Below are positions 7,192-27,689 of a stretch of 28,557 nt of DNA, in pieces (positions within the stretch are counted from its first letter, which is position 1; each line of letters begins with the position of its first letter). The stretch is from assembly GCA_964373175.1 (NCBI GenBank), contig CAYJTP010000019.1, forward strand, positions 1-28,557, written 5' to 3'. This stretch comes from an uncultured Planctomycetales bacterium. GTDB lineage: Bacteria > Omnitrophota > Gorgyraeia > Aquiviventales > Aquiviventaceae. The notes under the pieces were generated by a model. That model made no database searches. It was not told where the DNA came from and saw nothing but the letters and a program-made list of their open reading frames with translations. The translations under genes were made by a program, and so were the position numbers.

Positions 7192-7214
7192 GGCTTTGCC
7201 CTCCTTTGAGACAG

Positions 7215-7242: not shown

Positions 7243-7263
7243 GGAAAAATCGGGCGGGGCAAC

Positions 7264-8708: not shown

Positions 8709-8737
8709 CGCTTGGTTGAGAATGTATATCTACGGGG

Positions 8738-8765: not shown

Positions 8766-8798
8766 AGGGAAAATTCAGCCGGACGGTCCCTGCTTCAG

Positions 8799-9008: not shown

Positions 9009-9067
9009 CTCAGGTTAACCCTCCAGATACTCATTGGAGCTTGGCACCGCCAGTAACGCCTCTGACC

Positions 9068-10552: not shown

Positions 10553-10992
10553 CTTGTGAATTTGACAGCCGACGCCGTCGCTCTACGCACTACCCCGTCG
10601 CTATCTACCAAGAAAAACCACAACCCCAACCAACGAGCGGCTCTCCGCATCTCAGCGCTGAGGATCCGTCTCCTGTAGAAAGGGTGGTCCGGCAACGCGA
10701 CCGTGTAATAAGCGTTCTTCTGCCTCATCCGGAGAATAATTTGTCCGAGTACAGAGAGGAAGTAGTTATCCCTCTGCGCCGTTTCGCTGTAGCCGGTCGG
10801 GTAACCTTTGCACTCCACGAAGATGTAGTGTCGGTATCTGGGATGATATCCCACAACATCCGCCCCGTGGGCCGCGAGGGGGCGTTCGACATGAAGTTTG
10901 TAGCCACGATCGTGAAGGGCTTTCCTGATCGACCTTACAACGTAATGTTCACCAAAACGATTGCTCAATTTCAGCTGTCGCTTTCCCTTCAT
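10540..10992 (-). CDS. Mrr-cat-like restriction-endonuclease fold protein (150 aa)
   Basis: HGADVVGYHPRYRHYIFVECKGY matches the D-x-D...(Q/E)-C-K pattern of the Mrr catalytic domain. ATG 10990-10992 overlaps the TGA of the upstream gene (ATGA). Confidence 0.55.
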   Translation of the reverse strand: MKGKRQLKLSNRFGEHYVVRSIRKALHDRGYKLHVERPLAAHGADVVGYHPRYRHYIFVECKGYPTGYSETAQRDNYFLSVLGQIILRMRQKNAYYTVALPDHPFYRRRILSAEMRRAARWLGLWFFLVDSDGVVRRATASAVKFTRWPR

Positions 10993-11933
10993 ATGGAAGT
11001 CCGCGAAGGCGCTTCTCCCAAGAGCCGGCCTGTTTCCTGATAAGCAGCTTTAACGAGTTCGATGGCCGAAGCCATATCCTGGGGTCGCTTTACATGCGCC
11101 TGAATCTTAAAGACATCGGATTCCCTGACCGCCCTTTGTTTTCCAAGAGAATTACCCTGAGGGACTTTAGGTAGGCGAAGAATTAGGCGCAATCCCTCTC
11201 GCTGACAAGTGACGTAACAAACAGTTGCCCATCTCCTTTTAAGCATGAGCCTCTTTTTGCCGACCTTGTATTCCAAATCAGGCAATTGGTTCTTGAGCGC
11301 CTCCTCCAAACCCTCGTACAACCTCTGTAACGTCTTCGGAAGGCTCGCTGCAAAATCTGCGGCAGTCTCAACCTGAACAGCAGCTTGTACGGCTTTGCCT
11401 TCCCTGCTTTTCAAGAGCGGAGCGATTGAGGCAACGGCGACTGCCGGCTTGATTTGCTCGAAGGAAAGAGTGCTGTTGTCAAAGCGACTGAAGCGCCACA
11501 GCTCTATCGGAATATCCTTGAAATTGATGGCTGCCATCTGATGCGGCGTGAACCGTTGAGCCACAAAAAGGACCTTGGATTCAGCCCAATCGATGTCTTT
11601 CTTTGTCAGGTTCTTGCCGAACTTCTTGTTGTACTCCAGCACAAATTCAGCTTTGTTGTTGAGCATCGTAGCGAGGTAGGCATATCCTTGATCGATCACG
11701 CTTCCTCCCTCGTCTCGTTTGTACTCGATGATAACGAAAGCGTTCGTCTCTTCATCAAAGGCGACTGTATCCAGAGTGAAACTCTGAACCGTAAATTCAT
11801 GTGCCACCAACTGGAGGCCGAAGATCTGGTTCAAGTTGGTTTCCACAACAATCTGGATGTCTGCCTCCAACCGAATCGACTGCTCCGCAATCAACCGGAG
11901 CTTCTTATTCCCATCGAGCGAGTAGAGCGGCAT
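10989..11933 (-). CDS. PD-(D/E)xK nuclease-fold protein (N-terminal HsdR-N/NucS-like domain) with a C-terminal domain of unknown function, 314 aa
   Basis: LDTVAFDEETNAFVIIEYKRDE has a D...D...E-x-K arrangement after a helix. The gene is visibly AT-richer than the surrounding region. Confidence 0.6.
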   Translation of the reverse strand: MPLYSLDGNKKLRLIAEQSIRLEADIQIVVETNLNQIFGLQLVAHEFTVQSFTLDTVAFDEETNAFVIIEYKRDEGGSVIDQGYAYLATMLNNKAEFVLEYNKKFGKNLTKKDIDWAESKVLFVAQRFTPHQMAAINFKDIPIELWRFSRFDNSTLSFEQIKPAVAVASIAPLLKSREGKAVQAAVQVETAADFAASLPKTLQRLYEGLEEALKNQLPDLEYKVGKKRLMLKRRWATVCYVTCQREGLRLILRLPKVPQGNSLGKQRAVRESDVFKIQAHVKRPQDMASAIELVKAAYQETGRLLGEAPSRTSI

Positions 11934-12010
11934 ACTGACTCCTCAAGAAGGGATGCATCCCTCTATGAAACGTGTCCTGCGCTCTTTGCGTGGATTCTGT
12001 AATGCCTTTC

Positions 12011-12427
12011 CTAATAGCTGCTGTCTTCTACCTGCCGGGGCAATTTCACTTCCTTAAACAGGTAGGTTTCCTTGCACTTGGGACACTGCTTGTAGCTACC
12101 GTTCCCATACTCTTGGAGATACACCAACTTTTTGTCTGAGAAGCAGCCCGGACAGAAAAATCGTTCAAACGGTTTAGCGTCCTTCGCCCGATAGACAACG
12201 GCCCCTTCTGATGTTTGATATTCCTCTACCGTTCCCCTGAGTTGTTCCCATTCCCGTGTTTCATCCAGCTCTTTTTTATATTCGAGCATCTGCTCCTGGA
12301 GCTGCAGGTTTCTCTCGCGAAGATCTTGGTTCTGCTGCCTCAGCTCCTCGATATAAGAAAGGACTTGCAGGACCTCTTCTTGATTTACAAACCTATTGAG
12401 GGCAGAAAGAATCTCCTTCGGGTTCAT
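12011..12427 (-). CDS. coiled-coil protein with a C-terminal CxxC...CxxC zinc ribbon (138 aa)
   Basis: LRQQNQDLRERNLQLQEQMLEYKKELDE is a coiled coil; CPGC...CPKC follows. ATG 12425-12427 overlaps the MTase TGA (ATGA). Confidence 0.6.
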   Translation of the reverse strand: MNPKEILSALNRFVNQEEVLQVLSYIEELRQQNQDLRERNLQLQEQMLEYKKELDETREWEQLRGTVEEYQTSEGAVVYRAKDAKPFERFFCPGCFSDKKLVYLQEYGNGSYKQCPKCKETYLFKEVKLPRQVEDSSY

Positions 12428-15400
12428 TTCATCATGATCTCCTGTTTGGTTGTTCCTCGTGCTAGGTGACAAAGCCGTGGGTCGGCGGGCGGAGGATCGA
12501 GAACTGTCTGGTAGGGCTTCCCATCTGAGATGGCTCGTTGCATGGCGTCGTAGCGTTCCAGGATGACCCGCTTGGTGCGGTATTCGCCAAAGCGTTCCTC
12601 GTCCTTTTCTCTGACAATGGGAAAGGTGTCCAAGATGTAATCGGCATCTTCCTGGGAGATGCCATACAGGTGAAAAAAGGCGGCGTCTAACTCACATCGC
12701 AATAGAAACCGGCGCTCATCATCCCAACGAAAGGGCGGACTGCCATAGCCGAGGTCATTGGCAAAGGGTTTGAGGTCCCAAGCAGTAAAGGTGAGCTCAA
12801 GGACACGTTGAGCCACCCATGATCTAACCGATTCAGTCACTGCCCAAGCACATGCCTCGCCATAAATCGCAGGGGGTAAGACTGGAAACTGATTTACAAG
12901 GAAGAAGCTGAGGTTGACTCCGCCAATTTTCTGTCTAACGACATAGTCAAAAATGAATGCACATAAGTTAGCGTACAGTAGTCCAAAGTCCTTCGCATCC
13001 TCTGTACCAAGCACAACGGGCATACTATGCCCAACGCCAGCCCATGGAAACAACCCGGGATTCATTGTCCGTTCATTAGTGGGACTCGTTACGTTGGTGA
13101 AGCCGAGAAGCCATTGGCGATTCCACTTCCCTGCAACAGCTTGGTTGCACTCATGCTCCTTAACCCAGTAAAGTGGCATAACGACACGGTCCGGATTGAC
13201 AAGCTCCGAGCTATCGAGCGTGTCGGGTTGTGCTCTGCGCTGCCGCGCTCGAGCACTGACAACAACATCTGCTGCGCGATGGTTGTAAATCTGAGACATC
13301 TTGGCTTCGTAGAGGGGGAGATATCGGGAGTCGCCCTTGTGAAAAACGTTCCCCTCCAGGCGCCAGTCCTCGGCGATCAACTGGTCACGCGTGCGAAACA
13401 AGTGCGAATCGCTGGTCATATTAAACAAACCCTGGCTGAACGAGACGCCCCATGGATTTTCTTCTGGAGGACCCTCTTTAATCAACACCGGCACGCGGCG
13501 ATAGATGGCCTTGGTGATCTCGGCGTCCCGCTTTGTCCGGAAAATCGGGCAAGTCCTGGTGTTGGGGTTCAGAAGGGCAATTTCTTCGGCGGTCAGAGTA
13601 AAGCGACGGTCTTGTTCACCGAGGTCCTCCACCCTGTGAAGGAAGAAAGCAAACTCGGCGCCATCGGTAGTCGGCCGCCCACGGCCGGTCAGAGTGAGGA
13701 GGCAAAACTTCATTCGGCTGTGCACAGCAGGAAAAAGTTTCTCACGGTTCTCAAAGTCATAGAGACTCACCAGCGACCGTGACCCCACGAGATCCTGAAA
13801 GAAGAACTTGGTCGTGTCATCTGTGGCAATGCCTGTAGGGACGATCGCCCCTACCCTCCCGGAAGAGGAAATGAGCGTGCGCTTGGTTTCGGCGAAAATC
13901 GCATAGGTGTTGATACGACCTCGGCCGCAGAGTGGATAACGCCCAGAGTTGCCTGCGAAATGAGCCATCCCATCCGCATATCTTCGAGCCTCCAAAAACT
14001 CTTTGTAGAGCGCGGGGGCATGCTCTTCTAATTCCTCGATTTTGCGCTTGCGCGCCGCACCAGTTGGAGCATTGGCGATGTCGGGATATCGGGTAGAAAA
14101 CCACTCTTTTTCCTTCAGCTCGGTATGCTCCCACGGCGGATTCCCCAGCACCACGTCGAATCCTCCGCTCCAGCCGGCCCGAGCGTTCTCCGGTTTCCCT
14201 TCAGCCGGAACCCGAAAGACTTCCGGGAAAGCCAGGTGCCAATGAAAGAACCGGTATTGTCCGGCTAGCCGGACGATCTCCTCTTGGACAGCAGGTGGAA
14301 TGGAATCCGGATCCTTCTGAAGTTCCAAGAAAACCGCGTGAGTGATCGGAGGAGGGGCTCCGGCGGCTTTCTTCCACATGAATGCAGCACACCAAGCGTC
14401 GGCCACTAAACGGGCCTTGCGGTACTCAGGGGACTCTGTCAGACGGCAAAACTGCGCTTCCTTGGCCCGAACACCGCCGATGGAGTCTTCCGGCAAGGCT
14501 TCCAAGGTTTCTGATTGGTGAGATAACGTGGTGTAGGCAGCTTTCGGCTCGGCCACCGCCATCGCTGAAAAAAGAGTGGCTTGGCCGCGCCGTTCATCGC
14601 GGTTCTGCCGGCGCAAGCTGCTGCAGGTTTGTTTGTCGTCCCCCTCGATCTGCTGAAACGCCTCATCCGGGATGCCCTGTTTGAGCAAAGCCGGAGTCGC
14701 ACCAATTAAACTGTTCCCGCAAAGGATGTGGTGATCCAAGAACGACAGGGGCTTGCCGGGCTCAATCGCCTCCATCCAGAGCCCGATCTTGCACAGCTCT
14801 ACGGCCATGGGATTCTGATCCACCCCGTGAATGCAGTGGCTTATCACCTCTCGGAGTGCCGGGCGCAGGGCAGCCGGGGACGGCTCCTCATCGCCAGTCC
14901 GGATCTGAGCCAGGCGCCTGGCGATTCGATGAGCTGCCGCCACCAGAAAATGCCCGCTTCCACAGGCAGGATCGCAGACCCTTAAACCGAGGATCGCCCG
15001 CTGGGGATCGGATTGGCGGGCCGCCTCCTCCAGGACCGGCTCCAGGGCTGAATCCAGGAGACAGCGGATGAGACTGGCGGAAGTGTAGTAACTGCCGGTT
15101 GTTTTCCTCTCAAGACCGGACTCGGCGGAAAACCCAAAGGTGCGGGCATCGGTGTTCACATCCGGGTGAAGCTCCAATAGCGATTCATAGACGCTGCCGA
15201 ACTCCTCGGTCCCGAGATTTTTGAAATCCACAGGACGCTGCAGGTGATCCTGCTTAACCAGGGTAAGTGCCCGAACCGCAGTGAGAAGATCCCGGTTGGA
15301 CAGCTCACCGGAGCTGAGGTCCGGTGTCGCCTGCGGGGACCACAGAGAGCTTCCCAGAGCCGGCAGTGCCAGAGGGGGGCACCCCTCATCGCCGCTCAGC

Positions 15401-16464
15401 TTCTCCATCACGATCCGGAGAGACCGATAGAGGTCCGGATGGGCGGTTCCTCGCTGGCTCTCAGCCAGGCGCCGCAGGCGGGTGGCTGAATAATAGCGAA
15501 CGTATCGGTCTCGCTCCAAGACGCCTCTTTGGGGATCTGCAAGAAGTCCCCGCTCCTCAGCGACAAAGAGAAAAATGAGCCGGTACACAAGGCGGAGGAG
15601 CTGGCGGTAATAATCCTCCTTGAACAAGGCGCCGGAACGCAGCCGGTCGCGCAGCAGGGTGTTGGCTGGATGGCCCAGGAAGCCGGTCCCCAAGACACAG
15701 ATGGCGTCCTCCACACCAGACCGTAAGGTTTCCAGGGCGCGGATACCTTGCTCATAGGCGGCCTGAACCCATCGCTCCAGCCAGCATTCCTGTGGCGAAT
15801 CTCCCCCCAGGCGGGACTCATGGCAGAGCAGCCACAAAAGGGCGAAGTCGGCATAGACCTCCTCCGCCATCATTGTCTCCAGATCGAACTCCACACAGGC
15901 CTGCCGAGTAAGACTCGCGTTGTCACGAAGCAACCGCAAACGCAGGCCATTGGAGACGATCCCCCAGAGGTGATCCTCGCTGCGGTTCAAGAGCTCCTGA
16001 ACCAGCCCATGGGGGCTGATACGGGCCGCTCCGGCCACTCCGGGCTGGCGCTGGTCGAGATCAACACCAAATCCGATGAGATGAATGGGGACCTTCTGCC
16101 AAAAATGGGAGATGGGATAGGATTTTCCGGTAACCGTCAATGCTTTACATGCAGCCAGTCTGCCATAGCCCAACTCTTGGAAGAACAGGAGCAGCCAGCG
16201 ATCGCGGGTCAAGCCGGTCCCGAGGTCACCCGGGGACAGCTTTTCGCGCGCCTGCCGGAAAGAGTTCCAGGCGGGAAGGAGACGGGTCCACGCGCGGCTG
16301 ATCGCTTCGGTGACACGCTCGCCAGGGGCTACGAGATGATAAGCGGCGGGATCGAATCCTCCGAGGTTGCCATCCCCAGAGGCGATTCGGACCAAAAGAT
16401 CCGATGGAAAGAGACCTCCCTCAGCACGAACAGTAGCAAAGAAGCTACCTGAACCACCCCTCAT
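12424..16464 (-). CDS. large gamma-class N6-adenine DNA methyltransferase (DrmMI / PglX / Eco57I-like), ~1346 aa
   Basis: Motif I VCDPACGSGHFLV precedes motif IV VVLGNPPWE (NPPW). There is a long C-terminal extension ending ...GEYRTKRVILERYDAM.... ATG 16462-16464 overlaps the SNF2 TGA. The in-frame track ORF extends to 16626. Confidence 0.9.
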   Translation of the reverse strand: MRGGSGSFFATVRAEGGLFPSDLLVRIASGDGNLGGFDPAAYHLVAPGERVTEAISRAWTRLLPAWNSFRQAREKLSPGDLGTGLTRDRWLLLFFQELGYGRLAACKALTVTGKSYPISHFWQKVPIHLIGFGVDLDQRQPGVAGAARISPHGLVQELLNRSEDHLWGIVSNGLRLRLLRDNASLTRQACVEFDLETMMAEEVYADFALLWLLCHESRLGGDSPQECWLERWVQAAYEQGIRALETLRSGVEDAICVLGTGFLGHPANTLLRDRLRSGALFKEDYYRQLLRLVYRLIFLFVAEERGLLADPQRGVLERDRYVRYYSATRLRRLAESQRGTAHPDLYRSLRIVMEKLSGDEGCPPLALPALGSSLWSPQATPDLSSGELSNRDLLTAVRALTLVKQDHLQRPVDFKNLGTEEFGSVYESLLELHPDVNTDARTFGFSAESGLERKTTGSYYTSASLIRCLLDSALEPVLEEAARQSDPQRAILGLRVCDPACGSGHFLVAAAHRIARRLAQIRTGDEEPSPAALRPALREVISHCIHGVDQNPMAVELCKIGLWMEAIEPGKPLSFLDHHILCGNSLIGATPALLKQGIPDEAFQQIEGDDKQTCSSLRRQNRDERRGQATLFSAMAVAEPKAAYTTLSHQSETLEALPEDSIGGVRAKEAQFCRLTESPEYRKARLVADAWCAAFMWKKAAGAPPPITHAVFLELQKDPDSIPPAVQEEIVRLAGQYRFFHWHLAFPEVFRVPAEGKPENARAGWSGGFDVVLGNPPWEHTELKEKEWFSTRYPDIANAPTGAARKRKIEELEEHAPALYKEFLEARRYADGMAHFAGNSGRYPLCGRGRINTYAIFAETKRTLISSSGRVGAIVPTGIATDDTTKFFFQDLVGSRSLVSLYDFENREKLFPAVHSRMKFCLLTLTGRGRPTTDGAEFAFFLHRVEDLGEQDRRFTLTAEEIALLNPNTRTCPIFRTKRDAEITKAIYRRVPVLIKEGPPEENPWGVSFSQGLFNMTSDSHLFRTRDQLIAEDWRLEGNVFHKGDSRYLPLYEAKMSQIYNHRAADVVVSARARQRRAQPDTLDSSELVNPDRVVMPLYWVKEHECNQAVAGKWNRQWLLGFTNVTSPTNERTMNPGLFPWAGVGHSMPVVLGTEDAKDFGLLYANLCAFIFDYVVRQKIGGVNLSFFLVNQFPVLPPAIYGEACAWAVTESVRSWVAQRVLELTFTAWDLKPFANDLGYGSPPFRWDDERRFLLRCELDAAFFHLYGISQEDADYILDTFPIVREKDEERFGEYRTKRVILERYDAMQRAISDGKPYQTVLDPPPADPRLCHLARGTTKQEIMMK

Positions 16465-19316
16465 CCCGTGCTTCCTGGTAGAACACCTGTGACCGAAGTG
16501 GCTGGGAGGTAGACGTATACTCCCAGGATATCGGCCGGCAATTGTGGGATGATCCGGTAAGTCAAATGACGCAGTCCGGCCGCCTGGCGCACACGTTGGT
16601 GGGCTGCCAGAAGCGCCGCCGCCCAATGCTGGGCTCTTTGCTCGATATGTGGCCGCAGAGACCCGATGCCATCCACCACGCGTCGCACAAAATCCGCGGC
16701 TTGGTCCGGGGAGACGTTCGCATCCGGCTCGGCGCCAAGGATAGCTTCCGCGGCCTCGTCCTCCAGCCAGACAGCATTTTCAGGAGCTCCTTCAAAAGCA
16801 AGAAGGCGTGTCTCCTCGGCAAGCTGGGATTGCTCAGTCCCTCCTCGCCGCGTCACGAGATCGTACCGGAAACGGACGAGCAGAAGGGTCGTTCTCTTGG
16901 TAACGGCGCGGGTGCGGATGGAGCCGGACCGTTTGGCAACCCCCTCCGCGACCGGATCGAGCGCGCTTTCCAGAACGTAAGAAGCCAACGCCTCGATCAG
17001 GGGATGCGTTCTGGAAAGATAGTACGTGCCCTCCGCCACCGGAAGTTCAAAACGGACCCGGAAAGTGTCTTCGCAGCTCAGCAGATCCCGCAAGGCGCGC
17101 GGCGTTTCTCTCAGGTCGAAATGAAACTGCCCCCCCCTCTCGGAAATCACCGCTCCAAAAGCGCGAAGGGCCTCTACGGTAAAAGCGGCCACGTCTACGG
17201 CAGATCCCACGGCAGAGCGCGCCTCAGCAAGTTCACGGAAAACCTCCTCCGGCTTGATGGATTCTTGGGCAAAGACCGAGCGGGAGCGCTTCTCCTTGTC
17301 GGCCGCACTTTCCCATTGGGAATAGAGCTGTTCTTTTCTGGGTCTGAAAAACTCCTCAAAACCCGACAAAAGCAACTGCTGCTCCTCTCCTCGCCGCTGG
17401 CGCAGGAGAAGGCCTTCAAGAATTGCCTCCACCACCGCATTGGTATCCCCCGGGATAGGGATGGCGACCCCGGTGGAGTTCCGGATCGACCGATGTTTTC
17501 GAATGAGAACATCCAGCACAATGCCATCAATCTGGTTGTCAATCCCATAATAGGTAAGGACACGAACCGTAGACCGACTTTGACCATAGCGGTCCACTCT
17601 TCCGGCACGCTGTTCGTGCCGCGTGGGACTCCAGGAGAGATCGTAATGAATGACCGCATCGAAATGCTCCTGAAGGTTGATCCCCTCGCTCAAGCAGTCG
17701 GTGCAAACCAAGACGCGATGGGGGGCTTTTGACAGCTTGAGCACCTTGGCCTCGCGATCAGCAGGGGGTAACAAACCTGTAACGTCCTCGACCTCCACGC
17801 CGGCTGGCAGGCGCTTCCGCAGCTCCCGGGCAAGGTAGCCAGCCGTTGGGATGAAACGACAGAAGACGATTGGACGGTAGCCGTCCCGGAGGAAACCCTT
17901 AAGGTGCTCCACAGCCGAGAGCAACTTGATATCCTTTTCTCCCTCCAGATCTTCTGCTTGGCGGGCCATCTCAAGCAGGAGACGACGCCTGGATTGATCG
18001 GGCTCATCCTCTCCTCCCGGGTCGCTGCTCGGAGAAACGTCCACCCCTTCCGTGAGATCATCGGTGTCTGCGTCCAAGACGGTACGGCGTCCCCGGTCGT
18101 CAATCTCCTCCTCTGTCTCGGCCCCCGACAGGTCGGCTCGCACCCGCAGCGTGGCGGCCGCCGCTGCCGGGCTGGAGGCAAGCGACCGAAGAAGCGCCAG
18201 GGCTGCCCACCAGCGGACGCGCTGACGCTGGTGCCCGCCGGTCGAATCGGCTACCGTCTCGCGAGCGTAGCGAAGCACACGATCGAAGACACGGCGATAC
18301 TCATCTGAGAGCCGGTAGGTCTCCTCTTTCTCCTCGCGGTCAGGGAATGGTGTTTCTTCCTTCAGAAAATGGCGGATGTCAGCACGACGACGTTGAACCA
18401 AATGAGCAGCCAAGCGTTTCCGGTCGGCCTGATGTTCCGAACCAGCAAGGTTTTCCGGAAGCTCTGAAAATTCAGGCCGAAGGAGTGAGAGAAGAGATCG
18501 GAAGGCGGCTTCCTTGCCGCTGTGGGGTGTGGCGGTGACAAGGATCAAATGCCGGCTCTCATCAGAGGCGAGTTCTTTCAGGAGCTGATGCCGCTGGTGC
18601 CGGCCGCCCCGCCCCTCGTAGCCGAACGCGCAGGTGTGCGCCTCATCCACAATGAGCAATTCCGGTGCGTTCCGAATGAACTCGCCCCGGCGCCGCTCCA
18701 TCTTAATGAAGTCCATCGAGATGACCACGTGCGGATAGACCTCCAGAAGAGACTGACCGGGCCGACAATTCCGTTCCAAGCGACCTGCCGTGCTGGGGAG
18801 AACAAGCTCCGCCTCGATGTGGAATTTGGCGCTCAATTCCGCCTGCCACTGCTCCGCAAGATGCGGAGGGCAAAGAACCGCCATTCGGCTGATCTCTCCG
18901 CGGTCGAGCAGCTCTCGCGCAATCAAACAGGCCTCTACCGTCTTGCCAATACCAACGTCGTCAGCAATCAGCAGCCGGACTGGATTAAGCTTGAGCGCCA
19001 TCAGCAGGGGAACCAACTGATAGGAGCGCGGCTCTACCGCGATGCGGGCAAAAGAACGGAAGGGGCCGGCTCCAGAGCGGGATGACAGGCGGACCGCATC
19101 CCTCAACAACCGACAGGAACGATAGTCGCCCAATGCGGAGGGGTCCGGCATCTCGAACTGGGCAGATGAGACAGGTTCGAGCGGCAGGTAAATTCCGGTT
19201 TCTTCCGCAGCAGTCCCACCCAGCGGCCGCAGGACGAGCATATCCTGTTCCGAACCAGGCAGAACCACCCACTCCCGGCCCCTCGCTTTAACCAGGGATC
19301 CTACTCGAAAACTCAC
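16461..19316 (-). CDS. SNF2-family helicase (DrmD-like), 951 aa
   Basis: LIADDVGIGKTVEAC (motif I), LLIVDEAHTC (DEAH), QRAGRVDRYGQ (motif VI), plus a ~350-aa C-terminal extension. GTG start with a GGGAGG SD; it overlaps the upstream gene by 29 nt. Confidence 0.9.
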   Translation of the reverse strand: MSFRVGSLVKARGREWVVLPGSEQDMLVLRPLGGTAAEETGIYLPLEPVSSAQFEMPDPSALGDYRSCRLLRDAVRLSSRSGAGPFRSFARIAVEPRSYQLVPLLMALKLNPVRLLIADDVGIGKTVEACLIARELLDRGEISRMAVLCPPHLAEQWQAELSAKFHIEAELVLPSTAGRLERNCRPGQSLLEVYPHVVISMDFIKMERRRGEFIRNAPELLIVDEAHTCAFGYEGRGGRHQRHQLLKELASDESRHLILVTATPHSGKEAAFRSLLSLLRPEFSELPENLAGSEHQADRKRLAAHLVQRRRADIRHFLKEETPFPDREEKEETYRLSDEYRRVFDRVLRYARETVADSTGGHQRQRVRWWAALALLRSLASSPAAAAATLRVRADLSGAETEEEIDDRGRRTVLDADTDDLTEGVDVSPSSDPGGEDEPDQSRRRLLLEMARQAEDLEGEKDIKLLSAVEHLKGFLRDGYRPIVFCRFIPTAGYLARELRKRLPAGVEVEDVTGLLPPADREAKVLKLSKAPHRVLVCTDCLSEGINLQEHFDAVIHYDLSWSPTRHEQRAGRVDRYGQSRSTVRVLTYYGIDNQIDGIVLDVLIRKHRSIRNSTGVAIPIPGDTNAVVEAILEGLLLRQRRGEEQQLLLSGFEEFFRPRKEQLYSQWESAADKEKRSRSVFAQESIKPEEVFRELAEARSAVGSAVDVAAFTVEALRAFGAVISERGGQFHFDLRETPRALRDLLSCEDTFRVRFELPVAEGTYYLSRTHPLIEALASYVLESALDPVAEGVAKRSGSIRTRAVTKRTTLLLVRFRYDLVTRRGGTEQSQLAEETRLLAFEGAPENAVWLEDEAAEAILGAEPDANVSPDQAADFVRRVVDGIGSLRPHIEQRAQHWAAALLAAHQRVRQAAGLRHLTYRIIPQLPADILGVYVYLPATSVTGVLPGSTG

Positions 19317-22300
19317 GCTGCCTCCCGAAGATGTGTGGGTATTTTGAAATCACGCTGTCCCAATCTTCCCCTCCATTGAAGCGAATCACGGTGTAACCCG
19401 CATCTTCCATGCACGCCGTCTGCGCATGATCCCTCTGCTGGCGCTCCGGGTAGGTGTGTGGAGGGCCGTCAATGTAAATGGCAGCCTGAGATTCTTCGTA
19501 GAGGAAATCGGGCCGAGTACGGCAAGTCTCAACCAAGCACTGGGCACGAGAGGGCAAACGAAGATCCCTGGCATCGAGATACCTCAACCATTCCCGTTCC
19601 AGGTCGGAACCGCATTGCTTTATTAAGACAGCAAGATGCTCCGACCGGGAGGTCGGACCGGAGGAAGAGATTCCGGTAGCCCGTGACAGCTGGAGGAGAA
19701 GCTCCCGAATGCTCTGGCGGTCCAGCAGGCGGTGATCCATCTGATTGGTGTAACTCATCAGACAGTCATAGCAGGCCGCCTCGCAGTCCGTCTGCGCCCT
19801 CTCGACGCGGCGCTTGTCTTCACCTGTATCCGGGTCGTAGTGGCAAAGCTCCAGCGCTCGCCTGGCTAAACGAGCCATCGCACCGGGTTCCAAGAGCCGG
19901 CGAAGGACTCCCGCTCCACCCTCCGCCGCTTCATAGAACAGGATCAACCGCCGCTCTTTCCATGAAGGCAGGGCCTCAGCAGCTAATTCCGATTCCTCAA
20001 GCTGGTATTCCACCTGGATGGCGTTTTTCAACGCGGCCTGGAGCGAAGCCAACACGTTGGGTTCCGCTTCCGCGGACAACTGGAAGAGGAGACAATTTCT
20101 CCTGTCTTCCACATAGGGGATCACCCGACGGGTCTGCTGTAAAGTAACGTCCTGGTCATCGTCCTCTACATCTTGCTCGTTCTTCGCCCAGAAGCCGCGC
20201 TCGACGTCCAAGACAAACCCATACCGCTCTTGCTCCGCACGCCGCCGCCACCCCAGATTAATCCTCCAAAGAGTGGCGGTATGCCCGTAAGTCAGATCGG
20301 CCAAGACGTCTCCGTTCAAGACCACCTGCCCCGCAAGACAAGAGGAACGCTGACCATGCTCAGCGAACCGGACACCGGTCTGCAGCTCGAAGCCCTGTCG
20401 AACTCGCTCTTCCTCATCGGAGTTGATCTGGTTCTTACGCCGGGTACTGACATTTTGAAGACGGAAAAGCGACGCAAGCGGCGCCGGCAATTTCCCACCA
20501 CATCGGTCGCAAAGGTCTGGACCGCCTCCGCCAGATATGGGGTGCAGATACCCGCAGTGATCACACTGCTTTGCGGAGGTAGTCACCAGATCATTGCTGT
20601 CATCCCGCACAGGAAGGATCACTCTGTCGATTTTGTAGCGAGAACCCTCATGGTAGATGATCGACTGTGGGCCAAATTCAGAGATTGCCAAAAACCGCGG
20701 CCGGGACAGGAATTCGTTGGTACCCCGCATCTGCCGGCGGCCTGGGATATAAGCCGACAGGGGCAGTCTCGGAAAGCTGTATCCCGGGAGGAACCCTTCG
20801 CTCGCGAAATAGCGGTAGCTGTAAAAATCCGCCTCGATGGCATTCTGTGCCTCCCTCAAGAGATCCAGTTGCGCTTCCGCTTCAGCGCGAAGCCGCTTGG
20901 CCCGGTTTTTGTCGTCTTGGCTCCTCGTGGCGTCCGAGATGATCCTGTGCTGAAGGTCGCGCTGACGAGAGGCTGCTCGGTACAACGTTCGCCACCGTTC
21001 ACAAGCAACGTCGAAATGCCGAACGGCCTGTGCGAGCACCTCGCCAAGCCATCCCTCACTGTACCAATCGGCTGTCGCTAGCTCCGGGAGAATGCTATCC
21101 AGAACACGGCGGGCGCGGACAAGGGCTCTCTCGCGAATATGGGGATCGTTGATCGCATCTCGAATGTGGGACTGAAATGCGAAGCTGGGTTCCTCCCCCG
21201 AAAGATCGAGAACGTCTTTCAGCGAAGTGCCGAGCCCGATGCCCGTTTCGGCAAGCCAGATCGCATGAACATGCGCCCGTATGAGGTCTTCATTGGTGAG
21301 ATCAAGCTGCGGCGGCATCACCTGGCCGGTCACCATCCGGTCGGGCCTGCGGAAGAAATACTGGTCATGGGAACTAAATGTGGAGCAATAAGAAAATACC
21401 AGTGCAGGGCGACCGCTGCGGCCTGCGCGTCCGCTGCGCTGTGCGTAGTTGGCCGGGGTGGGCGGGACGTTCCTGAGGTTCACCACGTTGAGCTCCGCAA
21501 TATCCACACCCAGCTCCATGGTAGGAGAGCAGAAGAGAATGGGCAACCGGCCCTCGCGAAATCTCTCCTCCCGATCCTGCCGGACTTCGTATCTTACCTG
21601 GGCGGTGTGTTCCCGTGCCTCCAGACCGATTCCATCGGCAGCGACGTTGCGATAGAAGTCAACGAAAAACGGATTTGTCCGGCCACCGTCCGCAGGCGGC
21701 CTCGGCACTCGAATCGGGTCGTAAAACGGCTGCTGACCATCCCCTTCCGTCCAGACAAGCGCGCTGGCCAACAGTTGATACCCCGGGACATCGTCACCCT
21801 TTTTCGGGGCAGCGGCCGCTTCAACTAGACCGGCAACCTGGAGCGCCTTTAGGAGGTCTCGGGTAATATGCAGGGAATCCTGAACATTCAATCTCCGGCC
21901 TGCGCCTGTAAATGTAGAGCCCCGTCGAAGGTACTGACCGAATCCGCCTCTGGGCGATAAGCAGAGGTTCCTCTTATATTCCTGCGGCCGGGACGGTCTG
22001 GGGTAAAGAAAGGTTGAGGGCTCCATCGTTTCGTTTTCATCAATCGCCCAAGGCGAGATCAGATGCTGCGAGCTCATCTGCTGGATCCGTTCTTGGACGG
22101 CGGGATCCAGATAGTCCACCTTGATGGCCATCTCGCGTCGCATATAGTCGAGGAGGGTCTTCGCTACCGCCATCCTTGTCTCCGGCTTCGCAGAGGCCAA
22201 AGCTGGATGCAGGTCTTTCCATACATCCTCTGCCTGGCAAAGCTCATCCAAGGAACGGTAACGGATTTCAAGCAGGCCGCACTGCTCAAGGTTCGGCAAG

Positions 22301-24483
22301 GTAACACGCCAACCCCGTTCAAGATCGCGGTAGAGACGGTAGCCCAGGACCCACCGTAGGGCGCGTTTAGTCTCCTCAAGGGCTTGGAAACGAGCTTCCG
22401 AATTGCTGGCATAGAACTCCAATGGCAGATTCAAGGCTTCGAAAACACGCTCGACTAGAAACTCGTGGGAAAGCCCCTCCTGCCCGACTGCCTTTACAGC
22501 CTTGTACAGGGCCGAACGGAGGACTCCAATCTGGAGGAAGTCGTTGAAATGACCGGCTTGCAAAGAGGCATCCTGCCTGTTGTCCGTGAAGCTGAGAAGC
22601 TTGCGCGCATGCCCAGGGAGATCCTCCGCCTTTTTGAGGTAACGAATCGCGGCAAGGCTGAGGATCGTAGTGGCCGTGCTTCGCCCTTCTGTCGCAAGAG
22701 AGGTCAATTTCGCGAAGTCAGAACGCTGGCGGGCTCCGTAGGCAACACCGCAGGCAAGGCAGAAGTGGAAGGGGGCAGGGACATAATGGAGGTCGGTGCC
22801 GCCTTCTCCTTCAACCGCCTCCGTAGAGACTCGCACGGGTTTGGGGATCCACTCCTGGCGATCTTTCCGAACACGAAGAGAACCCCGGAATTCCTCAAGA
22901 CAGTCTTCCGGAAGAGATTCCAGAACCTTCCCTGGATCTGTTGGCCAGGGGTGACTGGAGCTCAAGTAGAGGAAGCCAGGCTCCCCCTCCTCATCGTTAA
23001 ACCGGTCAGAGAGGGCACGCGGGGAAAATGCTCGTAACCCGTTCGTCTCATCCTTTTGGACGCGCACACAATAGTATTCCTGTCCACATTCTCTACAGAA
23101 AACAAGCGGCAGGAGGACGCGTTTCCGATCTCCTGGGACGTAGCGTTGCCCTTGAACGGCGAGGTAGCGTTGATTCTCTGGTTCAATTGAGGCGTAAATC
23201 GTGTCCCCCCGGCTGATAAACTGATGGAGGCGGAAAGCAAAGACCGGGAATCCGGTTTCGGGGTTGAGCTTGCGGTAGCTTGAGAGGAGATGGCTCTCCA
23301 TCGCAAGAACACATTGCTTCTCCGTTAACCCTGTAAGTTCGCTCAATTCCTTGGCGGCACCCTGTTCTCCACCGATTGAACGGGGTTTCGCACGAACGGG
23401 CCGCCCCGTGCCCGGCTCCGAGGCAAGCCCGAACACAGATTCAATCCAGACGGAGAGGGGGTCGTTCAAAAACGAGCGGTAATCTAACGTCTCTCCGGCT
23501 GGTCCTGCTTCTATTCTCTGACGAAGCTGGGCGGAAAATCCGGGGTGTCGGAGGCCCTCGGACGGTGTTGCGCGGCGCACACTTTCTCCGATGATGTGTT
23601 CCGGCTGAACAAGCGAGCCAAACAGTCGCGTAGCAACAGCCGCTACCTCTGCTTGCTGCTCGAAAAGGGTTCCGGAACCAGCGATCGTCGCTGAAGTGCC
23701 AACGTACTGAATTTTCTCTGCACCAAAGGCGTCCTTCGCACGGCGAACCAGCATGGCCACATCAGCCCCCTGACGGCCGCGATAAGTATGGAGCTCATCC
23801 AGTACAAAGAAACGAAGCCCCTTGGCGGCCGCGATAAGGGCGCGTTCATAAGGGCGGGTTAAAAGCAACTCGAGCATGACGTAGTTGGTAAGCAAGATAT
23901 CCGGTGGATTCGCGATGAGACGCTGCCTCTCTTCATCCTGTTCCTGCCCCGTGTAACGAGCAAACGTCACCTGCGCCTTTCCTCCCGGAGAAGAACTGAG
24001 GAAGCGTTCCAGCTCGTGAAGCTGACTGTTGGCCAAGGCATTCATGGGATACACAATAAGCCCTCGGATACCCTTCCCCGAACCCTCGCGCAAGATGTGG
24101 TCTACAATCGGGATGATGTAAGAAAGGCTTTTCCCGGAACCGGTCCCCGTCGTCAACACATAGTTGGTTCCTGCATGAGCGGACTTAATAGCTTCTGCTT
24201 GATGTTTATACAGGCGTAAAGGCTTTTTTGATCCATCCGACCCGATCAAGAGAAATATTTGGCGGCAGGCTGGATGCAAGATTCCACCTTCAACAAGCTC
24301 TTCCACCGATTCCCCCATCTCAAACGCCGGATTAATCTGAATCATGGGATCAGGCCAAAGGAGTCCGCCCTTTAAGGCTTGCCCGACTGTTTCTTCAATG
24401 CGGGGATCCTGGATGTGGATGAAACTCTGGATGTAATCGCCGTAATACGTGATCAGCCTATTCCGCAGATCAAAGACGTTCAT
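19288..24483 (-). CDS. 1731-aa DEXH-box helicase of the DrmA/MrfA(YprA) type with CxxC zinc modules (DUF1998-like) and a C-terminal DUF559/Vsr-like endonuclease domain
   Basis: KHQAEAI...[17 protein letters not shown] (Q motif / Walker A), [11 protein letters not shown] (DExH), TSATI. Motifs V and VI (TMELGVDI...[12 protein letters not shown]) lie ~700 aa further downstream. CRECG...CLACG and CDHCG-x17-CDRCGG are zinc modules. The C-terminus ...[45 protein letters not shown] matches the DUF559/Vsr PD-(D/E)xK pattern. Confidence 0.9.
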
Positions 24484-24746
24484 GTATTCATCCCCACGCG
24501 GACTCGTTTCAAAGGTTTTTTAGAGAACTGGCTGGTTACTGCCTGTAAGGACGGGGTAGTTTCAATTCTCGATGCAATCCAAGCGGCAAATTCCTCTTTA
24601 GGGAACCGCCAGACCCCACCCACCTTGAAGCCGGGGAGTTTCTTCTCGCGGGCCAGGCGGGTAACGGTGAAAGGGTGGAGCTTAAGAACACGAGAAAGCT
24701 CGTTTGGCGTAAGGAATTCCATGTTTGTCTTCATCGGGGGTTGCAT
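24480..24746 (-). CDS. Xis/excisionase-family HTH (HTH_17-like) DNA-binding protein, first gene of the defense operon
   Basis: LTPNELSRVLKLHPFTVTRLAREKKLPGFKVGGVWRFPKEEFAAWI matches the MerR-like excisionase HTH. Its TGA overlaps the helicase ATG (ATGA). In-frame ATGs at 24746, 24734 and 24722 leave the exact start uncertain; the track ORF runs to 24842. Confidence 0.6.
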   Translation of the reverse strand: MQPPMKTNMEFLTPNELSRVLKLHPFTVTRLAREKKLPGFKVGGVWRFPKEEFAAWIASRIETTPSLQAVTSQFSKKPLKRVRVGMNT

Positions 24747-24748
24747 AG

Positions 24749-24893
24749 ATTGTAACAAAGCCGACGGGAGGTTGACAGCGCAAAAACCGGTGTACGCCTC
24801 CTGCCAGGCGTCATACTGTCCAGGTATGGGCAGGTGGGACAAGTAAGAATGGGGTAGAATGAGGACATGGGTATTGGGGAGAGGTGAGCCGAA
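24749..24893. promoter_or_regulatory. divergent promoter region between the defense operon (-) and the Cas4-like gene (+)
   Basis: Minus strand: extended -10 TGTTACAAT (24749-24757) immediately upstream of the HTH ATGs, i.e. a near-leaderless transcript. Plus strand: TTGACA at 24772-24777, TAGAAT at 24855-24860 and a GGAGAGGTGAG SD before GTG 24894. Confidence 0.3.
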
Positions 24894-25820
24894 GTGGGGA
24901 AACTGGTCAACGAGTTCTCATGGTCAAAATCGCAGGACGAGCAGTTTAGGGAGTGCCGGAGGCGGTACCACTACTCCCGCTACGGATCTTGGGAGGGCTG
25001 GCCAAGCGGTGACGGGGATGCCCGGGCAAAGGAGCTGTACCAGCTTAAGCAACTGAAGACCGGGCGGATGTGGCTTGGTGAGGTCGTCCACTGGACGATC
25101 GAGCAGGTCTTGAAAGGAATGCGGTTTGGACACCCTCCGACGGAGGCGGAGGCCATGGAGAAACTCACGGCCCGGATGCGACAGGATTTCCAAGATTCCA
25201 AAGACGGACGCTACCGCCAGGATCCCAAGCGGATCTGTAGGCTCTTTGAGCATGAGTACCAGATGAACATCCGGGATGAGAAGTGGGTCCAACTCCACGA
25301 AACGGCCCAAAGGTGCTTGAGGAATTTCTTCCAGACGAAGATCTACCAGCAGCTCCGGCCGCTCCGGCGGGATCAGTGGCGTGCCATCGAAGAGCTGGAG
25401 GAATTCATCTTCGAGGGGACCAAACTCTTTGTGAAACTGGACCTTGCGGTGGCAACAGGAGATGGGTTGCTCATTGCGGATTGGAAAACCGGCCAGGAAG
25501 AAGATGTGGACTTTGACGTGCAGCTTGGAATCTATTTCCTCTTCGCCGTCACAAAGTGGCGATGTCCACCAGAGAGAATTGAAGCGCTTCAGGTGGAGCT
25601 GGCGTTGCCCAAGGAAATTCTGCACCGTGGGCAGGCGGCCAAGGTGGAGTGGGTGCAGCACTACATCCGGAACAGCGTCACCGCAATGAAGGCCAACTTG
25701 CGGGATCCTGAGAAGAACCTAGCCGTCGAGGAGGATTTCCCGAAAGTGAACCAATACCGGAGCTGCTCATGGTGCAACTTCAAGCGGGTTTGCCAGCCGG
25801 AGGTGCTGGCTGTTTCGTAA
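24894..25820 (+). CDS. Cas4-like PD-(D/E)xK nuclease with a C-terminal Fe-S Cys cluster (PDDEXK_1/DUF83-like), stand-alone
   Basis: The N-terminus EFSWSKSQDEQFRECRRRYHYSRY is the S-x-S...C-x-R-x-YY opening of Cas4/RecB nucleases. LDLAVATGDGLLIADWKTG supplies the D...D-x-K motifs. The C-terminal CSWCNFKRVC is C-x2-C-x5-C. Confidence 0.8.
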   Translation: MGKLVNEFSWSKSQDEQFRECRRRYHYSRYGSWEGWPSGDGDARAKELYQLKQLKTGRMWLGEVVHWTIEQVLKGMRFGHPPTEAEAMEKLTARMRQDFQDSKDGRYRQDPKRICRLFEHEYQMNIRDEKWVQLHETAQRCLRNFFQTKIYQQLRPLRRDQWRAIEELEEFIFEGTKLFVKLDLAVATGDGLLIADWKTGQEEDVDFDVQLGIYFLFAVTKWRCPPERIEALQVELALPKEILHRGQAAKVEWVQHYIRNSVTAMKANLRDPEKNLAVEEDFPKVNQYRSCSWCNFKRVCQPEVLAVS

Positions 25821-25835
25821 GGGACGGGTCGGAGG

Positions 25836-26831
25836 TTGGAGCTTACATGGCTGCTGCATTCATTCTTTCTGGAGAAGACGGTGCGATACGCATTCACGCC
25901 TGTAAGGCAATTTGTTCCACGGCAATCTAAAGCAACCTTCGAGATAACCCCGGAATTCTGCTTCGTCTCTTACGATAGCCCATTCTCCGGATCCAGCCTT
26001 CGCGAGATGGTTGCCACTACACATGAAGAATGGCGAGCCGGAAAACAAACCGTAATCGGTGATCTAGAGATGAATGCGCTCGTCCGCCATGCAAATTACG
26101 TCCTGCTTTATCGAGGGGAAGACGAAAGTGACGAGGAGCAGGTGGCAAAACGAGTTAGGTTCTGTCTAGCAGCAGTCCGCTTGCTTGTACCCACTGATTG
26201 CTATGGCAGAGTCGTTTTTCATTTCAAGGAGGGAGAAAATCGCGTCTGGCCAACTTCTACCCCAGAAGAAGCTTTTGTTCTCCCGAAATACGAGAAGGCA
26301 ACTTTCGACGAGGATCTATTACCGAGAGTTTCGGAAATTTTAGTTCCAATGTCTCAAGCCTTTAAGACACGCCCTAATAGGATCACCACAGCATTACGGG
26401 CATTCAACCAAGCTCAGACGGCTTACTTCGATATTGACAAGATAACCCCCTACGCAGTTTGCATGGAGAGTCTGTTCGGAAGAGAAACAGATGAGATTAC
26501 CTTTCGATTGAAAACAAGACTGGCCTGGTTCCTTGAGCCGAAAGATTCTCTAATGCGGAAGGAGATCTTTAATCTAATCGGGAAGCTCTATCGATTTCGC
26601 TCCCGTTTAGTGCATGGCCGATTAGACAGCCTGCCTTTAACTAAGGAAACGGGAAATGCAAGACTGGAATTGATAGACCAAATCGAAAATGCCATCCGTC
26701 GGATGTTTCAGAAGGTGCTCCTTCACGAAGCAACCCGGAATTTGCTGTCGGTCAATGAATCGAAAAACGACAGTGCCTTAATGGAATTTCTGGACAGGCT
26801 TGTTCTTGATCATGATTCCAAAAGTATTTAA
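25836..26831 (+). CDS. hypothetical protein with an R-x4-H (HEPN-like) motif, low GC; possible Abi-type effector
   Basis: The ORF is clearly AT-richer than its neighbours. ...LIGKLYRFRSRLVHGRLD... contains an Rx4H motif at the end of a predicted helix. The start is uncertain: the track TTG at 25836 directly abuts GGAGG, and GTG 25881 with a GGAGA SD is an alternative. Confidence 0.55.
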   Translation: MELTWLLHSFFLEKTVRYAFTPVRQFVPRQSKATFEITPEFCFVSYDSPFSGSSLREMVATTHEEWRAGKQTVIGDLEMNALVRHANYVLLYRGEDESDEEQVAKRVRFCLAAVRLLVPTDCYGRVVFHFKEGENRVWPTSTPEEAFVLPKYEKATFDEDLLPRVSEILVPMSQAFKTRPNRITTALRAFNQAQTAYFDIDKITPYAVCMESLFGRETDEITFRLKTRLAWFLEPKDSLMRKEIFNLIGKLYRFRSRLVHGRLDSLPLTKETGNARLELIDQIENAIRRMFQKVLLHEATRNLLSVNESKNDSALMEFLDRLVLDHDSKSI

Positions 26832-26858
26832 AGCGAGCGGTAAAGTCGCAATCGCGCC

Positions 26859-27620: not shown

Positions 27621-27631
27621 CTCCTTTGGTT

Positions 27632-27677
27632 AAAAAACGCGGGCAGGCCCCGGCGCTGCAAGCCGGAACCTGCCCGC
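27632..27677 (-). terminator. Rho-independent terminator (minus strand) after the gene ending at 27690
   Basis: On the minus strand: GCGGGCAGG-(21-nt loop)-CCTGCCCGC followed directly by GTTTTTT (a 9-bp GC stem plus T-run). Confidence 0.5.
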
Positions 27678-27689
27678 TGAAAACCACCC

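Follow-up and report, generated by a model that had tools for sequence, protein, structure and literature searches.

The present locus raises the question of which family of anti-phage systems is represented by five contiguous genes that join a very large helicase-nuclease to an SNF2 helicase and an adenine DNA methyltransferase (MTase). The first-pass annotation regarded them as a non-canonical class 1 DISARM operon, that is, either an undescribed DISARM subtype or a hybrid of DISARM and the DruE-bearing Druantia systems. Judged by its sequence, the locus is most probably (at about 85%) an ARMADA Type I defence operon, composed of armC-like, armA-like and armB-like genes together with two extra small genes. 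ARMADA is a predicted anti-phage family related to DISARM and Druantia, which was named in 2025 and called the "missing link" between these two systems (Bell et al., bioRxiv 2025, doi 10.1101/2025.09.15.676423). The locus is therefore an intact and compact new example of an already named family, and its architecture is no longer undescribed. The hybrid description came close, since in the helicase DrmA-like and DrmB-like parts are fused as in DruE, but this architecture already bears the name ARMADA. The undescribed DISARM subtype has to be given up, both for this reason and because the DISARM-defining DrmB and DrmC features fail.

The window, i.e., the whole stretch of 28,557 nucleotides that was analysed, derives from an uncultured organism. 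All five ORFs on its minus strand were confirmed by reading the ORFs of the window, and the same genes were obtained with an independent gene caller, with identical proteins of 84, 1731, 951, 1346 and 138 aa on three metagenome contigs. In the direction of transcription these are an HTH_17/excisionase-family gene (24480-24734), the gene of an ArmC-like YprA-family DExH helicase-nuclease (19288-24483), the gene of an ArmA-like SNF2 helicase of the BrxHII/RapA type (16461-19316), the gene of an ArmB-like, PglX-like gamma-class N6-adenine DNA MTase (12424-16464) and a gene for a coiled-coil protein with a Zn-ribbon (12011-12427). All five were initially thought to be coupled by ATGA overlaps. Direct reading of the sequence located such overlaps at three of the four junctions, namely HTH/helicase (24483-24480), SNF2/MTase (16464-16461) and MTase/Zn-ribbon (12427-12424), but the helicase and SNF2 genes share a 29-nt overlap of another kind, formed by the GTG start of the latter at 19316 and the stop of the former at 19288. 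The GTG start is supported by the conservation of SNF2 residues 1-25. The MTase is the 1346-aa product from the ATG at 16464 and not the 1400-aa ORF with a TTG start, and for the HTH gene the ATG at 24734 (84 aa) is more likely the start than the alternative ATG at 24746.

The GC content is 0.57-0.60 in the core genes, 0.51 in the HTH gene and 0.477 in the Zn-ribbon gene. The window has no tRNA genes, and the scanned window proteins include no integrase; GC content is hence the sole basis for the boundaries of an island. A weak sigma-70-like promoter match (CTGTCA-18-TACAAT with an upstream TG, minus strand, 24749-24778) is located just ahead of the HTH start; in the promoter and terminator scans of the region, sites were no more numerous than in shuffled sequence.

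The operon of helicase, SNF2 and adenine MTase genes flanked by HTH and Zn-ribbon genes is real, as both Pfam domains and motifs confirmed. In detail, the helicase contains the domains DEAD (residues 93-268), Helicase_C (953-1024), MZB/DUF1998 (1481-1575) and DUF559 (1658-1704), arranged as RecA1, a large insert, RecA2, a helical region, an OB-CON-DUF1998 portion and a C-terminal Vsr/DUF559 nuclease. The insert, of ~680 aa, separates the DEAD domain (ending at 268) from Helicase_C (starting at 953) and carries conserved CxxC pairs at 463 and 575; in ARMADA Type I, BrxA-like, Zn beta-barrel and MarR-like parts have been described between RecA1 and RecA2 (Bell et al. 2025). The Walker A motif TGTGSGKS (residues 112-119; minus strand, 24127-24150) and the DELH box (minus strand, 23788-23799) are at least 95% conserved across 41 aligned helicases. 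The MrfA Zn-binding (DUF1998) module (minus strand, 19759-20043) is fused to the helicase with no separate DrmB-like gene, and the C-terminal Vsr/DUF559-type PD-(D/E)xK nuclease domain (minus strand, 19291-19566) is the predicted effector.

Two earlier observations are thereby upheld, i.e., the Vsr/DUF559 endonuclease at the end of the helicase in place of a PLD nuclease, and the lack of a separate DUF1998 gene and of a PLD gene, neither of which occurs among the 18 window proteins scanned. The locus is indeed not a canonical DISARM, having no separate DrmB and no PLD DrmC. DISARM class 1 (drmD, drmMI, drmA, drmB and drmC) has in common with the window a YprA-type helicase accompanied by DUF1998, a large adenine MTase and an SNF2 helicase, and a likely action on unmethylated foreign DNA is a further shared trait. 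In DISARM, however, DUF1998 is consistently a separate protein (DrmB) and the nuclease is the PLD protein DrmC. Moreover, EVE-like, trigger-loop and jelly-roll parts occur at the N-terminus of DrmA, to which the window helicase is only a weak match. The latter, formerly assigned to a DrmA/MrfA/DruE clade, falls on the DruE side and not on that of DrmA (PADLOC, 1e-100 with DruE3 vs 5e-17 with DrmA). In accordance with this, the published YprA tree groups the ARMADA helicases with Druantia and not with DISARM or Dpd (Bell et al. 2025). A new DISARM class 1 subtype, built from drmA, drmD and drmMI with its nuclease exchanged, is highly improbable given the fused DUF1998, the missing PLD DrmC, the position of the helicase and a DrmD score that stays below the cutoff (see below).

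The affinity to DruE could instead suggest a Druantia-type system around a DruE helicase, to which the SNF2 and MTase genes are mere neighbours. DruE of Druantia (Types I-III) and the window helicase share one major YprA branch. The window helicase has its best PADLOC matches in DruE models, and by sequence its best matches in PDB are with 9tu7, a DEAD/DEAH box helicase of 2108 aa and thus about the size of DruE, and with YprA/MrfA (6znp). But the helicase scores higher against ArmC of E. coli Sakai (137+126 bits, with 25-31% identity) than against DruE (111+94 bits), and its C-terminal nuclease is of the Vsr type, with SNF2 and MTase partners, in contrast to the PLD type of Druantia III. No match to DruH was found in the window, and the other Druantia partner genes (DruA-D, DruM/F/G) are absent too. 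PADLOC v2.0.0, a release of 2023, is older than the name ARMADA; a model of ArmC is thus presumably lacking in it, which would leave DruE as the nearest label on offer. A Druantia-type system is hardly credible on these grounds.

The second protein of the operon comprises the Pfam domains SNF2-rel_dom and Helicase_C and the conserved motifs GIGKT (residue 122), DEAH (224) and QRAGR (569). It is 29% identical to ArmA of E. coli Sakai, and matches RapA of NCBIfam with 115 bits and BrxHII of PADLOC with 6e-45. Its equation with DrmD, and that of the MTase with DrmMI, stands as homology (310 bits and 2e-67, respectively) and not as equivalence, the NCBIfam DrmD model (NF038317) having a cutoff of 610 bits and the DrmMI match being partial. 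Another PADLOC label of the SNF2 protein was "DpdE" (PDLC02853, 6e-271). A Dpd system of 7-deazaguanine DNA modification was rejected, however, as this is the single PADLOC label of the kind: NCBIfam gave 197 bits for DpdE (cutoff 500) and 80 bits for DpdJ (cutoff 800), and the window contains no further Dpd gene. Hma/MADS, with only weak partial matches, was likewise rejected.

The MTase carries the Pfam domains Eco57I and N6_Mtase, and the motif order proposed at first sight proved correct, with motif I DPACGSGHFL at residue 498 (minus strand, 14944-14973) ahead of NPPW at 775 (minus strand, 14131-14142), both conserved. Identity to ArmB of E. coli Sakai is 23% over 943 aa; the match to PADLOC DrmMI (2e-67) is confined to residues 502-835, a PADLOC Type IIG model gave 3e-49, and searching PDB with the MTase sequence brought no match. 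The C-terminal half (minus strand, 12427-14067), which is presumed to be the target-recognition domain, is variable: the mean column identity to the window MTase is 0.41 there vs 0.55 in the N-terminus and catalytic core. Such variability would fit a diversifying specificity domain.

At the other end of the protein, a restriction-endonuclease-like alpha/beta subdomain is predicted at about residues 100-200 (minus strand, 15865-16167), where the PglX of BREX, on the contrary, lacks a nuclease-like domain. In this N-terminal domain, D181 is conserved and E192 and D194 are invariant. This fold bears on whether the MTase could be sufficient by itself, as a Type IIG/IIL restriction-modification enzyme that has its own nuclease at the N-terminus, the helicases being unrelated or merely cooperating. 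That reading, which had been named in advance as one that could overturn a defence operon, did not follow outright: an endonuclease-like fold is predicted, but a canonical D...ExK motif was not recognized in the MTase N-terminus, and the first 190 residues of the protein show no alignment with ArmB of E. coli. In addition, the MTase gene is locked to the helicase pair (50/51 loci) and was never seen apart from it, and the helicases are essential for defence in ARMADA Type II. An autonomous Type IIG/IIL enzyme is accordingly very unlikely.

The identification as ARMADA Type I is drawn from the combination of genes, from their order and from the homology of the helicase to listed members. By definition, Type I begins with a YprA homologue with a C-terminal, predicted active Vsr nuclease, after which a helicase resembling BrxHII and an MTase resembling PglX are encoded (Bell et al. 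2025). In the window, direct reading gives the order YprA, SNF2, MTase: a YprA helicase related to the listed Type I helicases, with a fused OB-CON-DUF1998 and, at the C-terminus, a Vsr-type nuclease of predicted activity, is adjacent to a BrxHII/RapA-like SNF2 helicase, and this to a PglX-like N6-adenine MTase. A tblastn search with E. coli ArmD (RelE-GajB/UvrD) found no match in the window, so no ArmD gene accompanies them. Five relatives of the helicase, with 47-60% identity over ~99% of the length, lie on records with an "ARMADA Type I helicase" entry in Table S1 of Bell et al., and membership in the Type I clade was judged by pairwise homology to the helicases of these listed records. Four of them belong to related loci of our comparison (L010, L039, L060 and L072; 56-60% identity over ~99% of the length), and the fifth is DR_B0135 of Deinococcus radiodurans (46.6%).

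The comparison set of 80 related loci determines which genes form the conserved unit. The SNF2 helicase is present in every related locus, the YprA helicase is upstream of it in 54 of 55 loci and the MTase downstream in 50 of 51. The complete triad, in the same order, was found in 37 of the 38 evaluable loci from many phyla, an arrangement far beyond chance, and the catalytic motifs of all three core proteins are conserved. Some related loci possess an ArmD-like or P-loop fourth gene. The conserved unit thus consists of three genes only, i.e., helicase, SNF2 and MTase, and the five-gene system first proposed does not hold, as only nine related loci have HTH genes and not one of them all has the Zn-ribbon protein.

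The two small genes are of different nature. The excisionase-like character first ascribed to the HTH protein is borne out by TIGR01764 (38.4 bits, above the cutoff of 28.8); Pfam HTH_17 matches with 2e-13, and NCBIfam MADS1 with 44.8 bits, below its cutoff of 80. In the nine loci mentioned, homologues of this gene adjoin that of the helicase, and about a fifth of Type I loci have an HTH gene in this place. C-proteins, BrxR and MAD1 are controllers of operon transcription, and the HTH protein is probably a MAD1-like optional accessory which regulates the operon. The Zn-ribbon protein has CPGC at residue 92 and CPKC at 115, following a coiled-coil-like N-terminal half. A word-index search returned only itself and one fragment, and an exhaustive phmmer search returned 198 small relatives with a common layout. 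Most of their contigs are too short for the context to be read; the readable contexts are of prophages or mobile elements and not of ARMADA. Its role as a conserved ARMADA subunit was therefore rejected. The gene, absent from all 80 related loci, is a lineage-specific add-on, translationally coupled to the MTase.

Among characterized and predicted systems, the closest layout is that of ARMADA Type I on the MP1 replicon of D. radiodurans R1, where DR_B0135 and its neighbours are the same three genes in the same order. The present operon differs in the HTH_17 and Zn-ribbon genes, translationally coupled at its two ends, and in its intact MTase, which in D. radiodurans is split into two ORFs beside an IS630 element. 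ARMADA Type II of E. coli O157:H7 (OI-172, armABCD) has homologous ArmA, ArmB and ArmC proteins with a Vsr-type nuclease on the YprA helicase, but its order is armA-armB-armC-armD, as opposed to the armC-like, armA-like, armB-like order of the window. Its ArmC has extra EEP and second Vsr domains, which the window helicase lacks, and Type II requires a fourth protein, ArmD (RelE-GajB/UvrD), which is missing here. As to BREX systems that carry PglX and BrxHII, e.g., Type 3, no PglZ, BrxC, BrxA, BrxB or BrxL was found in the window.

Type II is the only experimentally validated ARMADA; its defence is non-abortive and requires all genes and the NPPW motif (Bell et al. 2025). In E. coli EDL933, where ARMADA II was predicted by DefenseFinder, an armB deletion mutant was obtainable and had lost defence (mBio 2026 paper), and the MTase is therefore read as a part of the restriction machinery. 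The word "methylation" is absent from the main text of the preprint which defined ARMADA (Bell et al. 2025). A three-gene Type I without ArmD may work differently from Type II.

What we infer of the mechanism comes partly from likeness to BREX and to the Type II of E. coli. The variable C-terminal domain of the MTase would read a short DNA motif, and host DNA would be marked with N6-methyladenine. The same MTase would also be needed for restriction, as in these two systems. Unmethylated invading DNA would be engaged by the MTase, the SNF2 translocase and the YprA helicase, and ATP-driven translocation and unwinding would feed it to the Vsr/DUF559 nuclease of the helicase, so that the invader would be nicked or degraded and the cell not killed. 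The upstream HTH protein would probably control transcription of the operon in the manner of the C-proteins, BrxR and MAD1. A five-gene sub-variant of Type I can also be envisaged, with the HTH protein as dedicated regulator, the Zn-ribbon protein as MTase partner and the N-terminal domain of the MTase as a second, motif-directed nuclease. This is unlikely; if true, ARMADA I would act in the manner of Type IIG/ISP-style enzymes, with two translocases as its motors.

For annotation, the locus is a warning that the output of PADLOC v2.0.0 can be misleading when taken over automatically, since the labels it gives to these genes are DruE, DpdE and DrmMI. For the study of ARMADA, the 80 loci offer as leads the HTH gene, the ArmD-like or P-loop fourth gene, the fold of the MTase N-terminus and its variable C-terminus. 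ARMADA Type I is widespread in bacteria and archaea, and the locus adds to it one example from an uncultured bacterium.

Five co-directional genes occupy the minus strand from 12011 to about 24746. The first-pass annotation had described them as contiguous, and this is borne out both by the ORFs of the window and by an independent gene caller, which gives the same set (84, 1731, 951, 1346, and 138 aa) on three metagenome contigs with identical proteins. The coupling through ATGA overlaps that had been proposed for all five genes holds, by direct reading, at three junctions (HTH/helicase, SNF2/MTase, and MTase/Zn-ribbon) but not between helicase and SNF2, which overlap by 29 nt with the SNF2 start at GTG 19316. 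The first 25 SNF2 residues are conserved, which supports this start. The methyltransferase (MTase) is the 1346-aa product from ATG 16464 rather than a 1400-aa TTG ORF, and the HTH gene probably starts at 24734.

The domain content previously read for the HTH protein, the two helicases, and the MTase agrees with the domain matches. The small upstream protein matches HTH_17; the 1731-aa protein has DEAD, Helicase_C, MrfA Zn-binding/DUF1998, and DUF559 domains; the 951-aa protein combines an SNF2-related domain with Helicase_C; and the 1346-aa methyltransferase matches Eco57I and N6_Mtase. In the last, motif I DPACGSGHFL (residue 498) is located N-terminal of NPPW (residue 775), as had been stated. 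The 138-aa downstream protein has a coiled-coil-like half followed by CPGC...CPKC. Across homologs, the large helicase keeps its Walker motif, the CxxC pairs, and the Vsr residues D1659, D1672, G1673, and H1676; SNF2 keeps GIGKT, DEAH, and QRAGR; and the MTase keeps motif I and NPPW.

When one genome per species was searched with the SNF2 protein, 80 loci (52–70% identical) were recovered from many phyla, including Chloroflexota, Thermodesulfobacteriota, Acidobacteriota, Actinomycetota, Planctomycetota, Spirochaetota, and Verrucomicrobiota. Neighbors were counted in evaluable loci only, by tblastn of all window proteins against the related loci. The large helicase is upstream of SNF2 in 54 of 55 loci, the MTase is downstream in 50 of 51, and the two flank SNF2 together in 37 of 38; the genes of such loci invariably run helicase–SNF2–MTase on a single strand. 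What is conserved is thus this triad rather than the five-gene system suggested at first: HTH_17 relatives adjoin the helicase in just nine related loci, and the Zn-ribbon protein was found in none of the 80. The G+C content of these two small genes is 0.51 and 0.48, versus 0.57–0.60 for the core genes.

The labels assigned to the core proteins by PADLOC v2.0.0 (release of 2023) are mutually inconsistent, that is, DruE, DpdE, and DrmMI. In detail, the helicase matches DruE at 1e-100 and DrmA at just 5e-17; SNF2 (16461–19316) is covered end to end by “DpdE” (PDLC02853, 6e-271), with DrmD next (2e-80); and the MTase shows a partial match to DrmMI (2e-67), followed by Type IIG. All NCBIfam equivalogs remain under their cutoffs, namely DrmD (310 vs. 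610 bits), the curated DpdE (197 vs. 500, far below), and DpdJ (80 vs. 800). DISARM class 1 does not fit, as two of its defining features, a separate DrmB and the PLD protein DrmC, were not found among the proteins scanned. Druantia, to which the DruE match would lead, does not fit in its partner genes and nuclease type, and the support for a Dpd system consists of one PADLOC label. As for a stand-alone Type IIG enzyme, the second match of the MTase, this reading is made unlikely by the invariant linkage of the MTase to the two helicases.

The architecture of the operon is that of ARMADA as published (Bell et al., bioRxiv 2025, doi 10.1101/2025.09.15.676423). According to these authors, ARMADA YprA-family helicases branch with Druantia and carry a C-terminal Vsr-type nuclease predicted to be active, and ARMADA operons have in common with DISARM class 1 a BrxHII/RapA-like helicase as well as a PglX-like methyltransferase. 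One of the defining ARMADA features is the presence of BrxA-like, Zn beta-barrel, and MarR-like folds in an insert between the RecA domains (Bell et al.); in the window helicase, an insert of ~680 aa with conserved cysteine pairs is seen at this place. The earlier proposal of an undescribed DISARM subtype or a DISARM/Druantia hybrid was a sound call, in which the ARMADA architecture was seen from raw sequence, but the architecture is not undescribed, having been published in 2025.

For the records of four compared loci (L010, L039, L060, and L072), Table S1 of Bell et al. gives helicases as “ARMADA Type I helicase,” and the window helicase is 56–60% identical to the helicases in these loci over about 99% of its length. 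Among plasmids, tblastn matched the window helicase to that of the D. radiodurans R1 megaplasmid MP1 (46.6% identity, 99% of the query covered), where the triad is also present; DR_B0135 of the MP1 GenBank record is likewise Type I in Table S1. The E. coli proteins used for comparison derive from the OI-172 island of Sakai. The window helicase scores higher against ArmC (137+126 bits) than against DruE (111+94 bits), SNF2 shows 29% identity to ArmA, and the MTase 23% to ArmB over 943 residues. ArmD (Type II-specific), DruH, and a PLD protein were not found in the window. On sequence grounds, the locus is an additional member of ARMADA Type I with two nonconserved add-on genes. The model PDLC02853 appears to represent ArmA-type helicases, and thus PADLOC v2.0.0 would mislabel ARMADA loci. 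ARMADA II has been predicted by DefenseFinder in EDL933 (mBio 2026).

The predicted model of MTase residues 1–470 (pLDDT 82.5) contains a restriction-endonuclease-like alpha/beta part at about residues 100–200 and a helical part, and resembles the N-terminal domains of HsdM subunits. Since PglX differs in having only a helical bundle at its N-terminus, without a nuclease domain, the layout of the window MTase is Type IIG-like. The canonical D...(D/E)xK motif was sought in the MTase N-terminus and none was identified; D181 is almost invariant, and E192 and D194 are fully so. In the profile comparison with E. coli ArmB, the window MTase aligns just from residue 188 onward. The modeled domain may be catalytically active as a second nuclease or may have degenerated into a sensor or scaffold. 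In the Type I triad of the laboratory strain D. radiodurans R1 (L091, NC_000958.1 157173–169643), the annotation divides the MTase between two ORFs, DR_RS17025 and DR_RS17030, after which comes an IS630 element; this MTase may be disrupted. Many MTase homologs on long contigs are 450–820 aa, which suggests that split MTases are common.

Additional genes are found in some of the related loci. An ArmD-like UvrD helicase, 32–34% identical to E. coli ArmD, is upstream of SNF2 in L024 (6264–8240), L072 (7829–9808), and L044 (2–1879), and in the first two it is placed between the helicase and SNF2 genes. As L072 combines this gene with a Type I helicase of Table S1 on its record, the absence of ArmD is not an absolute distinction between Types I and II. 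Five ARMADA I loci (L009 17403–19442, L080 13238–15283, L077 17901–19871, L075 19234–21207, and L059 18055–20058) encode a protein of ~660–680 aa that contains a P-loop-like motif (GHGVGKT) and has no match in Pfam; its gene is within about 500 nt 3′ of the MTase, and directly after it in four. The copies share 24–32% identity, and this protein may be an alternative fourth ARMADA I component. Between SNF2 and MTase, some ARMADA I loci harbor further defense-like genes: L028 carries a Lamassu-like pair of a Cap4-type nuclease and an AAA_23 ATPase (12986–16760), and L032 a 1527-aa STAND-like NTPase (12875–19822).

The HTH protein of the window, an excisionase/MerR-type HTH_17 with a weak MAD1 match (44.8 bits vs. 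a cutoff of 80), would most simply be a transcriptional regulator. A weak promoter-like site is located just upstream of its gene. The Zn-ribbon protein (12011–12427) belongs to an unannotated family of about 200 small proteins, also represented in L088, L089, and L090, with the layout coiled coil, EW, GGAxVY, CPxC...CPxC. The readable contexts of its relatives are prophages or mobile elements. One relative has an N6_N4 MTase and phage tail genes as neighbors, and another is placed among toxin–antitoxin and LexA-like genes. One member is named “ZapB” in one source, probably because of its coiled coil.

The region 9068–27620 (roughly 18.5 kb) consists entirely of defense-like genes, with a G+C content under that of the flanks (1–9067 and 27621–28557; 0.63–0.69). 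The flanks contain housekeeping-type genes (ECF sigma factor with zf-HC2 anti-sigma, SIMPL, SPFH, and TPR proteins). No tRNA genes were found in the window, and the scanned window proteins include no integrase; a strong terminator-like hairpin is present at 27677–27639. Directly downstream of the operon, a second tight minus-strand string (9068–11933; overlaps of 4 and 13 nt) encodes a PADLOC PDC-S18-like protein with DUF5655 (10989–11933, 1.4e-81), an unannotated 150-aa protein (10540–10992), and a 494-aa DUF2779/Cas4-like protein (9068–10552). In L016, a DUF2779 homolog (39% identity) is upstream of the ARMADA helicase. A divergent plus-strand pair (24894–26831) encodes a 308-aa PD-(D/E)xK protein, matching PADLOC “Aga_Cas4-like_Nuc” at 1e-19, and a 331-aa protein without family match but with RSRLVH, a HEPN-type Rx4H motif; the pair may form a separate two-gene defense module. 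It is flanked by a 26-nt imperfect direct repeat (22/26 identical; 24794–24819 and 26861–26886). The right copy codes for the C-terminus CDAWQDA of a Cas4-like gene (26859–27620), and the left copy, upstream of the HTH gene in its untranslated leader, reads YDAWQEA. The repeat may be a remnant of cassette insertion or may have arisen by chance.

E. coli ARMADA Type II protects directly and not by abortive infection; it requires all four genes, intact Walker motifs in ArmA and ArmC, and an intact NPPW motif in ArmB. An armB deletion mutant of EDL933 was obtainable and had lost defense (mBio 2026), and the MTase is therefore read as part of the restriction machinery and not as a protective modifier alone, similarly to PglX in BREX. 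The word “methylation” is absent from the main text of the ARMADA preprint (Bell et al.). By analogy with E. coli Type II, the MTase would read a DNA motif via its C-terminal half and methylate host adenines; this half is the most variable (mean column identity 0.41 vs. 0.55). Unmethylated DNA would then license the SNF2 and YprA motors, and the Vsr/DUF559 domain of the helicase would cut the DNA.
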